64,000 nt of DNA, taken from NCBI GenBank assembly GCA_963823665.1, contig CAWGMQ010000008.1, positions 608,001-672,000 of the forward strand. Reading direction: 5' to 3'. The stretch's first letter is position 1; each line of letters opens with the position of its first letter. The notes beneath the pieces are model-generated. The model was not told the origin of the DNA. It did not search any database and saw only the letters and a list, made by a program, of their open reading frames with translations. Below, piece after piece: positions 4,426 through 10,206 of this stretch. The translations under genes and the position numbers were made by a program. Origin of the DNA: an uncultured Planctomycetota bacterium. Lineage in GTDB: Bacteria; Planctomycetota; Planctomycetia; Isosphaerales; Isosphaeraceae.

Positions 4426-4652
4426 GGTTCCGAAATTCCTTGGCGAAGCTCGGCGCGTCGCCAGCGCTGGCACCGAAGACGGTCCGCAGATAGCGGACCC
4501 TACGGGTTCAACGCGGATTTCCTCGCTCACAGAAGAATTAGACCTCTTACAGTTGGGACGAGGGAAAAAAGCGAGCCTTGGGGTGCCGTAGCTTTGATTA
4601 TTTTACGTTTATGTGAGCACTTCGAGTCAAAATGCTTTTGAACAGAAGGTAA

Positions 4653-6651
4653 GTCGAGTAGCGGAGGGACGGGTGTGACCCCGTCGCCTCCGCCCTCTTC
4701 AAACCGGACTTGCAGATTTCCCGCATCCGGCTTGCCCAAATCCTCTCGATCGAAGGCGATTCGCAGGGAGGCAGCGATAAGTCATTTCAGGAGCCGCAGG
4801 CCGAGGCTCTGCAGGTGGAAGTAATCTGACTTGCCTACCGGGGTACGGTAGGCTCGCTGACTGCGACGTTGCAAGTGACGCGTCAAGCGCAGCAGCATGA
4901 AGCTATTGAGGTTCCGAAACCGATGGCGGGGATAGCCGTAACGGAAGTATCCGCTCCAGCCTTTTGTCCAGCGGTTGATACCGTCTATCACCTCTCGGAT
5001 GGAGACGAAACACAGCCTGGGCCCAGTCATCTCTCGGATTCTTTCGTGGGCGCGAGCCATCGACTTGACTGAGGGAAACACGTTGAGATATCGATGATCG
5101 CGGCCAAAGAGGTCCCGGTCGTATCGCAACGCAAAGCCCAGAAAGTTCAGGCTCTGACCCGGTTCATGCAGCTTGACGATTCGCGTTTTCTCGCGGTTGA
5201 CGGTGAGCCGAAACCGTCCCTCTAACAGATTCTCGATCCAATCGATCAAGCGCTGAGATTGATAGCGTGCCAGGACCACAAAGTCATCGGCATACCGCAC
5301 GAGTTTGGCGTTGGCCCAGCGACTAGGTCCGTCGAAACGATAAAACAGCTTCTCGAACCAATGCAGGTAGAGATTCGCCAGCAACGGTGAAATTACTCCA
5401 CCCTGCGGCGTCCCCTGTTTCGGCCGAGTCACTTTAGTCTTACCGTGTCCGTCGGTCTCGACGACGGGGCTTTCCAGCCACATGCGGATCAGCTTCAGCA
5501 CGGAGCGGTCGGCAATCCGTCGTTCCAGGCACTTGATCAATGCATCATGTGGAATTGTGTCGAAGTACGATTTCAGATCCGCGTCATAGATCTCTCGAAA
5601 CCCGGAGTTGACATGGTGACGGATCGTGTCGATCGCCTGATGAGCGTTTCTTCCTGGACGAAACCCAAACGAGCAGTTCAGGAAGTCAGCCTCAAAGATC
5701 GGCTCGAGTATCAACATGGCCGCCGTTTGGACGATCCGGTCTTTGACCGTGGGAATTCCCAGCGGTCGCATCCGGCCGTCCGGTTTAGGGATATAGACGC
5801 GTTTGACCGGCTGCGGTCGGTAGCGTTTGGTGCGGAGCTCTTCGTGCAACTGCCGTATGTAGGCATCCCAGGCAGGATCATCCAGTGTGACGAGGTCCTG
5901 ACAGGTGACACCATCCACCCCGGCAGCGCCGTTGTGATTCAGCACCAGAGTCGCCGCAATCCGCAGCACGTCTTCCCGATAGATCCGGTCGTACAGAGCG
6001 TAGAACCGGAACTTCGGCTCCTGCTTGGCCTTTTGACCTAGCTTCTTTCTCAGTTCAGAGACTTTCGGCGGTAGCAGGACCCCAGACTTCACTTCTGGCT
6101 CAGCCAGTTGTTGGTCCCAGGTCAGGCCACCGTGTTCTTCCGTAGTGGGACGTTTGTCCAAGCGGATCTCCTCACTTCTGATGAAGCGTGAATTTGGCAG
6201 GGGTCCTTTGCTCCACGGTGGTTAGCCGTATCGTCGCTACTACGACCCCCTCCGACTCCCGGCGTGGCCGACTGGCGGTTATGGTTTCCCGTCGGTCGTT
6301 GGTCAGAGATCACTTCCAGATCTCAGACCGCCAAGCCGGGTCTCTCAGGTTCCTCACTGATCTGTCGACGCCCGCCATCCCCTCTCACCCCGGGTAGCCC
6401 ATCCGCTGCACGTGCTCGTTGCTTCGCGAATGGTGTCAGGTTTCGGCATCTTCGGAAGATTGACCACTACCACTGGTTTATCGAGGCCGAAACGGGTTCA
6501 CGCTTTCGCATTACGGCTGACGTCTTCGCGTTCTCGGGCTCCGACGGCGCGGTTGCCCGCACCGCCGCCGAGTCGGCTTCATGGTGAACGAGCAATTGCC
6601 ATGGGCAGTTCCTTTTAACTGTCGAGATCAGCGAGACTTAGCCTGACGCAC
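4653..6651 (-). mobile_element. Complete group II intron (~1999 nt, En-minus)
   Basis: Minus strand starts GTGCG at 6651; contains RT/maturase ORF; domain V AAGCCGGATGCGGGAAATCTGCAAGTCCGGTTTG (AGC triad); domain VI ends ...CTACTCGAC at 4653. Confidence 0.93.
4782..6161 (-). CDS. ltrA: Group II intron reverse transcriptase/maturase
   Basis: RPLGIPTVKDRIVQ, SFGFRPGR, GTPQGGVISPLLANLYL, RYADD, domain X (GWSGYF); no HNH endonuclease domain seen. Confidence 0.96.
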   Translation of the reverse strand: MDKRPTTEEHGGLTWDQQLAEPEVKSGVLLPPKVSELRKKLGQKAKQEPKFRFYALYDRIYREDVLRIAATLVLNHNGAAGVDGVTCQDLVTLDDPAWDAYIRQLHEELRTKRYRPQPVKRVYIPKPDGRMRPLGIPTVKDRIVQTAAMLILEPIFEADFLNCSFGFRPGRNAHQAIDTIRHHVNSGFREIYDADLKSYFDTIPHDALIKCLERRIADRSVLKLIRMWLESPVVETDGHGKTKVTRPKQGTPQGGVISPLLANLYLHWFEKLFYRFDGPSRWANAKLVRYADDFVVLARYQSQRLIDWIENLLEGRFRLTVNREKTRIVKLHEPGQSLNFLGFALRYDRDLFGRDHRYLNVFPSVKSMARAHERIREMTGPRLCFVSIREVIDGINRWTKGWSGYFRYGYPRHRFRNLNSFMLLRLTRHLQRRSQRAYRTPVGKSDYFHLQSLGLRLLK

Positions 6652-7110
6652 CGAAGGTAACGAAGGGGAGGAGAGCTGAGGGCCAGAAGCAGATGCCGAC
6701 GCGGGCACGGCACGCAACTGTCAGGATGGCCTCGGCGACGGCCGGTCCTTCCGGATCCAGGCGCCGAGCACTCAATACGGCTACCGCGTCACCGAATTTG
6801 TCTTTACCTTCGTTGCCTTTGTTCAAATCTGAGGCCACTGATATGCATCAGTCTTTTGTCGCGTCCATGCGGGCATTGAACTTAAGTGTGACGATGGGAT
6901 AATCGGAGTGGTCTTCGCCAAGGACCTGGGAAGATCAGTGCCGTAGCAAACGACCTCGACCGGCTGAACGTTCTTCTTCGCTGTGTGGCGAGAGTGTCTG
7001 CGCGAGGCCGAGAGAGCGGCAAGCGACTGTTCTGAAGCGGCCTGGTTGATCAACCTGCGACGATGCGACAAGTATTGGTTTGCGGGCCTCGATTCGAGGT
7101 GAACTGATTC

Positions 7111-10100
7111 ATGGACGTTCCTGTTTCATTGCGGCTTCTGGCTTCGACGAACAACGCGCGCGGGGATTTATTCACGCGGCTCGTCAAGGATCTGTTCTTC
7201 GCTCTCGGTTATGACGACTTGAGGCTCGATGTCCACAAGTCCGGCCGCGAGATTGACATCCAGGGGACGCACCGGCTCGAGCTGCGACGGCTCGTTGCCG
7301 AATGCAAAGCCCACACCGACAAGATTGGTGGCGAGGATCTCAACAAGTTCTTCGGTGTCGTCAGCCTCGAACGCGACAAGGACGAACGAATTCCCATCAC
7401 CGCCTATTTCGTCTCGCTCAGCGGGTTCCGGGAGACGGGCAAACAGCAGGAGCTCGAGACCAGCGAGCAGAAGCGAATCATTCTGCTTGATGGCAAGCAG
7501 ATGATTGATGAGATGGTGAATGGTCGGATTCTGATCAGCCGAGAAAAGGCCGTGGAGAAAGCCGGGGGCTGCCGTGCGCACGCTCGGTTGGAAGATGTCG
7601 ACGTGGACGAGACGGAATTGCTCGGGCACGAGCTCGGATATCTGTGGGCTGTGTACTACTCCCACGGCAAGCAGCGAGCGCACTTTGCACTGATTCACGC
7701 TGACGGTACGCCTCTGACCGAGTCCCTCGCTAGAGAAGTCATCAAGGCCGACCGGAAATGTCGCGGGTCACTGTACAAGCTAATGTACTTGGCTCCGCCG
7801 GCGCCGGCGGCCGATCGCGAAGCGCTCGCGAAGGCGTCGATCGAGCTCTATCGGCGATGGCTTGTCGCGGAATGTGGGGAGATTCAACTCCTGGGCCTAC
7901 CAGCGGATTCTGATCTGGCGACAAAGCGCATGAAGTTAGAGCGACTGTTCGTCCCGTTAAAGGTCGTCGCAGCCGCGCAGACGGAGGGAACCGGCGAGAG
8001 AGAATTTACAAGCCCGCCAGAGAAGATCACGCCCATCGGCGCGTTCCTTGGCCTGCATCCACGTTTTTCATTGCTGGCTAAACCAGGAGGCGGCAAGAGC
8101 ACCGTTCTGAAGCGGCTAGCGGTCGCCTACGCAGTAGCCGAACGGAGGGCAGACACGGACGATGGGCTTCCCGATCGGGATTGGTTGCCCCTGTTTCTGC
8201 GCTGTCGGGAGCTGCGTGATCGAGCCCATCGACCGATTCGCGAGCTGCTGGACGATCTACCGAAGCACGCCGGCATGAACGACGCTGTAGCATCATTTTT
8301 CCGCGCTCACATGGACGAAGCCCTGCGCACTGGGCGGGCGCTCTTGCTGGTCGATGGTCTCGACGAAATTCTCGACGAAGGCGCGCGGACAACGTTCGCC
8401 GGTCACGTGCGCACGTTTCTGGCGATGTTTCCGCAAGTGGCCACAGTCGTGACGTCGCGCGAGGCGGGATACCGCCACGTAGCAGGAGTGGTCGCCAGCG
8501 CCTGCGAGCAGGTGTCCCTCGCTCCGTTCGATCACGCTGACGTCCAGCGTCTTTGTGAAAGCTGGCATGTCGAAGTCGCGGGGGATAACGACAGGGTCCG
8601 AGCCGAAGCGGAAGCTCTGGCGGCTACGATCTGGAACAACGAGCGCATTCGCTCGCTCGCAGAGAACCCGCTGATGTTGACGACGCTTCTGGTAGTCCGA
8701 CGTTGCTCCGGCGGCGAGCTGCCGACTCGCCGTGTGGAACTCTATCGAGAAGCTGTGCGCGTCCTGATTCGCACCTGGAACACCGAAGGCTTCGAGCCGA
8801 TGGACTTGGAGGAAACCCTGGCTCAGCTTTCGTACGTGGCCTGCGTGATGATGAGCGAAGGTCTTCAGCAAGTGGGTCACCGACGGCTCCTCAAACTGCT
8901 CAGGGACGCGCGGAAGGAGCTGCAAGCCGAGTTGCAGTTCACGCGGGTTAGCGCCGAGAACTTTGTTGAACGAATCGAATACCGGAGCAGCCTTCTGATG
9001 CAGACGGGGCATGAACGGATCGACGGCGAGATCCAGCCGGTCTACGAATTTCGGCACCTGACTTTTCAGGAATACTTGGCGGCGCGCGGGCTGGTCGAGG
9101 AACAGTATCCCGGCCGAGATGACGGCCGGGGTCTGCGCGAGATTCTTGAGCCTCATTTTCCGGATCTATCTTGGCATGAAATCGTCGCGCTCGCATGCGT
9201 GATGGCGGGGCGCAGAGCTGTGTCCGTGCTTGAGCGACTTACGGAGCTGTGCGAATTTGGGAAGGCGGTTCAAGGCGCGGGCCCACCTGGCGATGAGGAG
9301 CATCGGCGACTGGCGCGCCTCCTGCGGCAGTGCCTCCTCGACGAAATACAAGTGCCGCCACCTGCCCTAGTTTCTGCGCTACGCGAAACCGTGCGCCATA
9401 CTGCCGACGGTGAGGGGCTAATACTCCTGCGGCACGGAAAGTTCGGCGGATTATTACAGGATGTCGTCGAGAAAACCTACCTCGAAGCGAATCGTCGCTG
9501 GGAAGACTATTATCGCGCGATGCTCGTGCTAGCGGGCGACGCCGTTTTTGGAAATCGGGCGATCGAGCTCTCATCCGAAGTCGCCTGCACCCTCGATCGC
9601 TGGCTTGCGTCGGGAAACCGACGAGAGCAAGCGCACGCGCTGCTGGTTTCGGCACGTCTTGCGATTTCGGCGTGGGGCAAACGCGAGAAGATTAACAGTG
9701 AATTCGTAGAGCGCATGAAATCGTTACGTAACGCCGCCGGTCAGATTCTCAATCCGGAGGATCCCGTGCTAGCGCTGACCGCCGCATGGACGCTTATGTG
9801 GACGGGGGCAGTTAGGGTTCCGAGCATGCCCCCCGCGCCGCGCGTCATTCAGACGTTATTCAAGTTATGGCGTGAGGCGGCTTCTCCTGAATTGCGTTCC
9901 ATCGCCGGGTCGGCGCTTTCATGCCAGCCGGTTCTTCCGCGAGACACAATCGCCACTGAGTTCTGGGCCACTGAGAATGAAGAACCCGCGGAACCGTCGC
10001 CCTCGTTCGAGCACCCCGCGACGCTCATAACAGCTTGGTATCGGCGCGGGCCTTGGAGCGACTCGGTGCTAGCCGAAAAAATCAGGCAGGCCGGATACTT

Positions 10101-10206
10101 CAATGGCGTGCAGGCTATGTGCATTCGCACGTTCGGCGAAATCCTCCTGACACTGGGCGATGCGGGACGTGCGGCAATTGAGGAATGGCAGGCGCGCCGT
10201 ACTTGA
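7111..10206 (+). CDS. Restriction endonuclease (Mrr-like PD-(D/E)XK)-NACHT NTPase fusion
   Basis: N-terminal GDLF...EIDI...VAECK nuclease motif; Walker A AKPGGGKS; Walker B LLLVDGLDE; VTSR, NPLML, HLTFQEYLAA; helical C-terminus. Confidence 0.88.
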   Translation: MDVPVSLRLLASTNNARGDLFTRLVKDLFFALGYDDLRLDVHKSGREIDIQGTHRLELRRLVAECKAHTDKIGGEDLNKFFGVVSLERDKDERIPITAYFVSLSGFRETGKQQELETSEQKRIILLDGKQMIDEMVNGRILISREKAVEKAGGCRAHARLEDVDVDETELLGHELGYLWAVYYSHGKQRAHFALIHADGTPLTESLAREVIKADRKCRGSLYKLMYLAPPAPAADREALAKASIELYRRWLVAECGEIQLLGLPADSDLATKRMKLERLFVPLKVVAAAQTEGTGEREFTSPPEKITPIGAFLGLHPRFSLLAKPGGGKSTVLKRLAVAYAVAERRADTDDGLPDRDWLPLFLRCRELRDRAHRPIRELLDDLPKHAGMNDAVASFFRAHMDEALRTGRALLLVDGLDEILDEGARTTFAGHVRTFLAMFPQVATVVTSREAGYRHVAGVVASACEQVSLAPFDHADVQRLCESWHVEVAGDNDRVRAEAEALAATIWNNERIRSLAENPLMLTTLLVVRRCSGGELPTRRVELYREAVRVLIRTWNTEGFEPMDLEETLAQLSYVACVMMSEGLQQVGHRRLLKLLRDARKELQAELQFTRVSAENFVERIEYRSSLLMQTGHERIDGEIQPVYEFRHLTFQEYLAARGLVEEQYPGRDDGRGLREILEPHFPDLSWHEIVALACVMAGRRAVSVLERLTELCEFGKAVQGAGPPGDEEHRRLARLLRQCLLDEIQVPPPALVSALRETVRHTADGEGLILLRHGKFGGLLQDVVEKTYLEANRRWEDYYRAMLVLAGDAVFGNRAIELSSEVACTLDRWLASGNRREQAHALLVSARLAISAWGKREKINSEFVERMKSLRNAAGQILNPEDPVLALTAAWTLMWTGAVRVPSMPPAPRVIQTLFKLWREAASPELRSIAGSALSCQPVLPRDTIATEFWATENEEPAEPSPSFEHPATLITAWYRRGPWSDSVLAEKIRQAGYFNGVQAMCIRTFGEILLTLGDAGRAAIEEWQARRT

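Follow-up and report, generated by a model that had tools for sequence, protein, structure and literature searches.

A class F-like group II intron in a planctomycete genome occupies a periodic repeat arm of a family associated with GxxExxY genes

The window analyzed here, a stretch of 64,000 nucleotides from an uncultured planctomycete of the family Isosphaeraceae, carries a group II intron without an endonuclease domain that interrupts one arm of a dispersed, 9-bp-periodic repeat. All full copies in this genome, all located copies in one relative and about half of a sample of related introns occur in arms of this kind. Ordinary EBS-guided retrohoming into a multi-copy repeat arm, probably at replication forks, is the reading that we consider well favored by the sequence comparisons below; the retrohoming mechanism itself is most likely ordinary.

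The intron (Table 1) starts with GUGCG and ends with AC on the minus strand, and in an Rfam search the match to RF00029 (DV/DVI) terminates exactly at 4653. It combines the characteristics of a group II intron, namely GUGYG...AY ends, a DV/DVI with a bulged A and an RT-maturase in DIV. The RT-maturase reading frame is intact and matches TIGR04416 with 364 bits (cut-off 300). The boundaries proposed in an earlier note on this DNA are thus borne out by the ends, by the end of the RF00029 match and by the empty site described below. Its description of a full-length DV with an AGC triad is likewise confirmed, and its candidate EBS1 (CGAAGA, 6454-6449) pairs with CTTCG through five of six bases and belongs to a pairing that covaries among relatives.

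Table 1. Features of the intron and of the interrupted element (window coordinates)
Feature	Position	Strand	Remarks
Class F-like group II intron of 1999 nt with IIB-type recognition	4653..6651	-	ends, Rfam match, empty ortholog
Intron-encoded RT-maturase, 459 aa, YADD, without endonuclease domain	4782..6161	-	
Domain V: AGC triad 4732-4730, 5-nt GAAAU loop 4720-4716	4700..4734	-	coordinates counted from the fold
Domain VI, bulged branch-point A at 4659	4656..4697	-	single-sequence fold
EBS1 (CGAAG), pairs with IBS1 CTTCG	6450..6454	-	
EBS2 loop	6473..6482	-	about 3 pairs with own exon; exon of the C6 copy fits better
EBS3 (A), pairs with first 3' exon base, T at 4652	6385..6385	-	
Alpha loop	6587..6593	-	
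Alpha-prime, terminal loop of DId stem-loop (class E/F feature)	6414..6420	-	
Outer part of interrupted arm = 3' exon of the intron	4637..4652	+	
Inner part of interrupted arm = 5' exon; IBS1 at 6652-6656	6652..6666	+	
Spacer between arms, resembling those of other doublets in this genome and in G011	6667..6801	.	
Degenerate inverted partner arm, shorter than the family consensus by one base	6802..6827	-	

Once the intron is taken out, the arm is again complete, with three 9-bp units and a full score (PWM score of 55.5 vs 14.5 for the interrupted half). The rejoined element, expected at about 190 bp with a reverse-complement right arm, measures 192 bp, and its right arm is an imperfect reverse complement of the left one (25 of 28 columns, one gap). 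The single unpaired base noted between the arms is present here, but it stems from a loss of 1 nt in the right arm that is private to this genome; it is absent from the ortholog in the same-genus genome G011 and from three other doublets. In G011, the orthologous junction aligns without gap or duplication and the intron is absent, while the doublet, the NACHT gene that follows it and the transglutaminase-like gene upstream are all the same. The G011 locus is therefore the empty site of the intron. Between the transglutaminase-like gene and the doublet, G011 (L246) carries some 3.3 kb (two ORFs) more than the window does at 4426-4513, with no arm at the borders of this extra segment. Directly downstream of the element, positions 7111-10206 encode a 1031-aa Mrr-type nuclease fused to NACHT, likely a defence protein. 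Elsewhere in the window, a run of GATTAG hexamers follows a degenerate hexamer stretch (around 1190-1230). Public runs contained at most 0.29 of the words sought; the contigs of four of them showed no spliced joint, although contigs cannot show its absence; one contig of these sets crosses the 3' junction of the intron with two differences.

The repeat unit is a non-palindromic arm of about 30 bp, consisting of AAC followed by three 9-bp units. It is a purine/pyrimidine-biased direct repeat that lacks a REP-type palindromic unit. Among 30 arms examined, 20 are solo (no partner within about 500 bp), five face a partner and five have a partner behind them, so the earlier view of the repeat as a palindromic element is not supported. 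That the repeat is multi-copy does hold: a single 18-nt pattern, which makes all counts lower bounds, finds at least 35 matches in this genome against one for the reversed control, and 17 to 43 matches in six same-family relatives among the 60 searched. The purine strand of the arms follows the majority orientation of the contig in 31 of 35 cases (p = 1.2e-4). Strong strand polarity per contig is visible on contigs C4, C5, C6 and C10, and possibly reflects a replication-linked spread of the arms. Paired tandem repeats of 7 and 8 nt, possibly of the same kind, were noted as putative regulator sites in the portions of the Geobacter genome papers available to us (PMC2700814, PMC2996986).

Two further full copies of the intron occur in this genome, with 97% and 96% identity. 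All three (L001, L002 and L003) sit in the same arm type at different loci and are cut at G|TT, and both the flanks outside the arm and the arm unit used differ among them. Two copies have an identical 14-nt exon end; two lie in the 3' arm of a doublet, while L003 lies in a solo arm. In the copy on contig C6, which occupies the arm directly before a GxxExxY gene, EBS1 and exon have changed in a matching way. Occupancy is low, with three copies against 35 listed empty arms. The full copies, whose ORFs are all intact, are mosaics in which the near-identical pairs change from segment to segment, a pattern that suggests gene conversion. A relative of 772 nt without ORF (L004/L005; C8:1904181-1904952; 80% identity) has an EBS1 that matches its own exon and was probably mobilised in trans. 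A second group II intron family is found at eight loci (L159-L166) with eight identical DV/DVI ends, each followed by a second DVI-like hairpin with an ending like the intron's own, as if insertion had taken place ahead of an intron remnant that is itself dispersed. Near arm L061, what looked like an intron start was discarded as a chance match within a gene. On each contig, the introns of both families lie on one strand (C8: 6/6; C6: 3/3; C3: 2/2). As the purine strand of the arms is biased in the same way there, the intron has used arms in the minority orientation, which may explain the low occupancy and the location of two of the three copies in the inverted partner of a doublet.

Target recognition was compared over a sample of relatives. 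From 80 related loci, 59 candidate starts were obtained; 11 entries with unsure starts and one tandem copy were dropped, four copies of this genome were added and two near-duplicates removed, leaving 49 introns (46 foreign and three own). Pairing between EBS1 and IBS1 scores 5.16 in these introns versus 3.35 for permuted exons (p = 1e-4, n = 49), confirming the covariation that the earlier note had proposed for testing, and EBS2-IBS2 pairing scores 4.19 versus 3.26 (p = 3e-4, n = 49). The domain I column at window position 6385 complements the first 3' exon base by 29 Watson-Crick pairs and one GU pair among the 32 introns with both ends. A periodicity at lag 8-10 is present in 20 of the 49 5' exons, compared to 4.3% of controls. 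A proportion of 24/49 5' exons match arms taken from the GxxExxY flanks of other genomes (three of the introns scored being from the own genome). The corresponding values are 1.8% for 853 flank windows, 5.6% for shuffles with IBS1 retained and 3/49 for the other strand. The arm library consists of inverted-repeat brackets and replaced a first library without period-8 arms, which had given 25/49; for the period-8 pattern, the control lacks independence, as the reversed pattern nearly re-reads the repeat. Clustering at 70% identity sorts the 20 arm-type matches that have an RT into 16 clusters, and they represent at least seven phyla. None of nine g3/g4-like introns, whose starts were taken without an EBS-pairing check, matches an arm.

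Of the 49 introns, 24 thus have flanks of this type, while the other 25, which include the close relatives L081, L083 and L123, do not score as such; the preference is therefore partial. The exon matched the GxxExxY flanks of its own genome best in only three of 11 genomes, in a comparison for which 10 genomes had been picked because their exons looked periodic. In a same-genus relative (L247), EBS1 and EBS2 suit a different arm type. Three introns (L105, L118 and L139) start with GAAAGCG instead of GUGYG, and their EBS1 pairing fits a start 2 nt earlier. Four introns that were not scored as arm-type (L221, L089, L121 and L088) lie in or beside other repeats or hairpins. The use of repeats by relatives of the intron may be wider than counted.

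The clearest example is genome G003, whose RT is 60% identical to the query and belongs to the same starred clade of the RT tree. Of 33 Rfam matches, 32 were retrieved, 31 of them with both ends. All 31 located copies (seven full and 24 without ORF) lie, as judged by eye, in the arm type that flanks the GxxExxY gene L196, and the 32nd match is a 3' fragment with the same flank. Two arms carry tandem intron copies in successive units, 9 bp apart, and many sites are in doublets. The orientation of the introns follows a replichore-like pattern with two switches (24/26 sites, p = 6.5e-4), while the arms occur on both strands (123 on one and 129 on the other).

With respect to its class, the intron is class F-like and IIB-type; the wording "class F-like" is used because class E and the Ge.ur.I1 group are absent from the RT tree. 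Two marks of classes E and F given in the accessible text of Nagy et al. 2013 (PMC3753933), a 5-nt DV loop and a terminal alpha-prime, are both present. The DV loop is GAAAU here and of the GAAAW type in 26 of 32 introns, alpha-prime lies at the end of the DId stem-loop, and the 7-bp alpha/alpha-prime pairing shows compensatory changes in 16 introns. In the RT tree, built with references from the available part of Toro and Martinez-Abarca 2013 (PMC3552965), in which Ni.ha.I1 (g3) is the sole named class F member, the query clade is separate from the g1, g2, g3, C and D references, the deep forks being unresolved. The RT is 42% identical to Ni.ha.I1 and falls outside the g3 clade of the latter. 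Membership of class C is rejected by the AU test (p-AU = 1.45e-5) with two plasmid references that were labelled class C here from their CGC triad. An assignment to group IIC, including IIC-attC, was also discarded, given the AGC instead of CGC triad, the full DV, the RT outside class C and the presence of EBS2, which covaries with IBS2 in this lineage, contrary to IIC introns, which have no EBS2. The rejection of class C by the RT tree and the location of 3/3 own copies and of the G003 copies in arms support the earlier proposal that a non-IIC lineage homes into a dispersed multi-copy repeat.

The protein linked to the arms is GxxExxY (PF13366/TIGR04256), a small uncharacterised nuclease of the PD-(D/E)XK family. 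In this genome, a listed arm lies no more than 100 bp from four of the 10 PF13366 matches, and a fifth match is preceded by the intron-interrupted arm of C6. The same arm type directly flanks GxxExxY genes in G018 and G022 as well. Over 11 genomes, 26 of 34 GxxExxY genes have inverted arms on either side, most of them with a period of 8, 9 or 10, compared to one of 34 control windows. GxxExxY is in any case present in 37 of 61 related genomes. By this association, the arms belong to an 8/9/10-bp-periodic family that brackets GxxExxY genes and also occurs as orphans between genes, either solo or as inverted doublets. The earlier note had proposed to look for a tyrosine recombinase or HUH transposase linked to the repeat; GxxExxY is neither, and of 11 Y1 (HUH, PF01797) matches none comes closer than 1 kb to any of the 35 listed arms, the nearest being at 2.6 kb. 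In one GxxExxY subfamily (L071, L073), the arms point away from the gene and the stop codon is located at the start of the downstream arm; L071 has a second instance of the gene start behind the doublet. A search of non-subscription papers yielded none in which group II introns are connected with these arms, or GxxExxY with repeats; the supplements of the two Geobacter papers, which deal with multicopy repeats, may contain arms.

According to the mechanism that we propose, an endonuclease-less class F-like intron would have retrohomed into one unit of an arm of three 9-bp units. As the sequence comparisons show, the intron RNA reads an arm on its pyrimidine-rich strand, by means of EBS1 (5-6 bp), EBS3 (1 bp) and, less strongly, EBS2, and a single repeat unit is sufficient as a site. 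Because arms are numerous and intergenic, the lineage would stay on them: introns with an arm-fitting EBS would multiply and persist, and changes in the EBS would move the lineage between arm types. The arms would then be the "safe", i.e., harmless, target presumed in the earlier note. Insertion linked to the replication fork is suggested by the missing endonuclease, by the likeness to RmInt1 (described in the accessible part of PMC8914252) and by the 24 of 26 G003 sites that fit two switch points; GC skew, skew at 4-fold sites, the position of dnaA and tRNA orientation do not separate leading from lagging strands in either this genome or G003.

An alternative is that the RNP, as in IIC introns, depends on the DNA hairpin that an inverted doublet forms, with insertion close to the base of the doublet's 3' arm. 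Such targeting would agree with the two of three own copies in the 3' arm of a doublet, with the many doublet sites of G003 and with an inverted partner within 400 nt upstream at nine of 26 arm-type sites, as against four of 29 empty arms in this genome and 1% of flank windows. Nonetheless, we regard it as unlikely. The hairpin is probably not needed, since 17 of the 26 arm-type sites have no strong upstream partner (the window's own site scores 11, just under the threshold) and L003 sits in a solo arm; moreover, the intron keeps EBS2 and an EBS1 of 5-6 bp, whose target a folded stem would hide, and class C is rejected. A single entry into one arm, followed by passive copying with the repeat or cassette or by duplication, could account for the identical 14-nt exon end of two copies and for the mosaicism, and arms and cassettes do lie in duplicated segments here (common flanks of L071 and L073). 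Yet, the flanks beyond the arm and the unit used differ among copies, the EBS1 of the C6 copy is re-tuned and the tandem copies of G003 occupy successive units. With the G011 ortholog being a doublet that lacks the intron, passive copying is largely refuted and very improbable.

Still less credible is a reading of the element as an attC site of an integron and of the intron as an attC-targeting one. It could draw on the imperfect inverted repeat, the G|TT cut in all three copies, the class E and CL1 IIB introns reported within integrons or CALINs (available text of PMC7923331), and the AAC and GTT near the outer ends, which had been likened to attC cores. These trinucleotides are indeed present, but the heptamer cores (R'' RYYYAAC and R' GTTRRRY) are absent from all 30 arms. 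The attC-like reading is therefore abandoned: besides the missing cores, most arms are solo, the bulge that would represent the conserved extrahelical base of attC is not conserved, the 64-kb window contains one such element and no cassette array, and no match to the integron integrase (TIGR02249) exceeds the cut-off in this genome. Among five arm-rich relatives, one has a TIGR02249 match with no arm in the 35 kb around it, a weak control as the gene holds a stop and no attC core is found there. Finally, the relatives of the intron cut before YGG rather than at G|TT.

Among known systems, the class F (IIF) introns Ge.ur.I1, So.us.I2, Pe.th.I2 and Ni.ha.I1, as far as described in the available text of PMC3753933 and PMC3552965, resemble the present intron in having an RT-X without En, a size of about 2 kb and a 5-nt DV loop; they also share the terminal-loop alpha-prime and EBS1, EBS2 and EBS3. 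Their hosts are listed as "putative non-coding sequence" (PMC3552965, Table S2), and in the accessible parts, these papers name no repeat family as a target, the word "repeat" being absent from that of PMC3753933. This same text reports IBS1 variants at 9 and 19 nt upstream of the Ge.ur.I1-1 splice site. The IIC-attC and terminator-type IIC introns are likewise En-minus, specialised on a dispersed intergenic motif and often found in the 3' arm of an inverted repeat. They differ by their CGC triad, their DV and their lack of EBS2; the target described here, often a solo arm, has no attC cores. The class D intron RmInt1, which inserts into ISRm2011-2, is also En-minus and EBS-guided with a multi-copy target and a replication-linked strand bias (PMC8914252, same part), but its target is an IS gene rather than a 30-bp periodic arm and its RT is of another class. 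REP/REPIN-RAYT systems share the short intergenic repeats, solo or in inverted doublets, that are tied to a small nuclease-like gene (PMC1525189, in part), and REP-targeting IS elements use such repeats as landing sites as the intron uses arms (PMC1525189; see also PMC3116915). On the contrary, the arms are periodic instead of palindromic, the partner is GxxExxY instead of an HUH Y1 protein and the invader is a retroelement. In Thermosynechococcus elongatus, intron proliferation also involved EBS divergence and ORF-less copies mobilised in trans, comparable to the 24 of G003 and the 772-nt mini-intron; EBS changes led to unrelated sites there (accessible text of PMC2882425), whereas here they often remain within one repeat superfamily. 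By analogy, the intron would work like RmInt1 on its IS, with an ecology like that of IIC introns on terminators or of IS elements on REPs.

A 2015 review recognizes, in the part available, three target specificities for bacterial group II introns, i.e., homing sites, terminators and attC (PMC4424553). The specialised introns named in a 2025 introduction, IIC and the IIB1 lineages at start or stop codons, do not include the present one (PMC12584367, as far as accessible), and our search of non-subscription papers yielded no description of this target preference. With the present finding, about half of the lineage sampled has a named target family, and an explanation is proposed for the cryptic splice sites that Ge.ur.I1-1 has at -9 and -19. 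The finding also shows a route to about 30 copies of one intron in a genome, all in intergenic repeat arms, and provides a natural probe for the GxxExxY repeat family, which is uncharacterised. A more speculative extension, which we hold to be possible but rather doubtful, is a three-layer parasite system: GxxExxY, as a PD-(D/E)XK counterpart of RAYT, would spread the arms, and a cross-phylum class F clade would be specialised to hitch-hike on them, with the RT or the RNA recognizing the periodicity of the arm, so that the EBS could drift among arm types while the intron stays within the repeat family. If true, homing sites, terminators and attC would be joined by one more mode of targeting.
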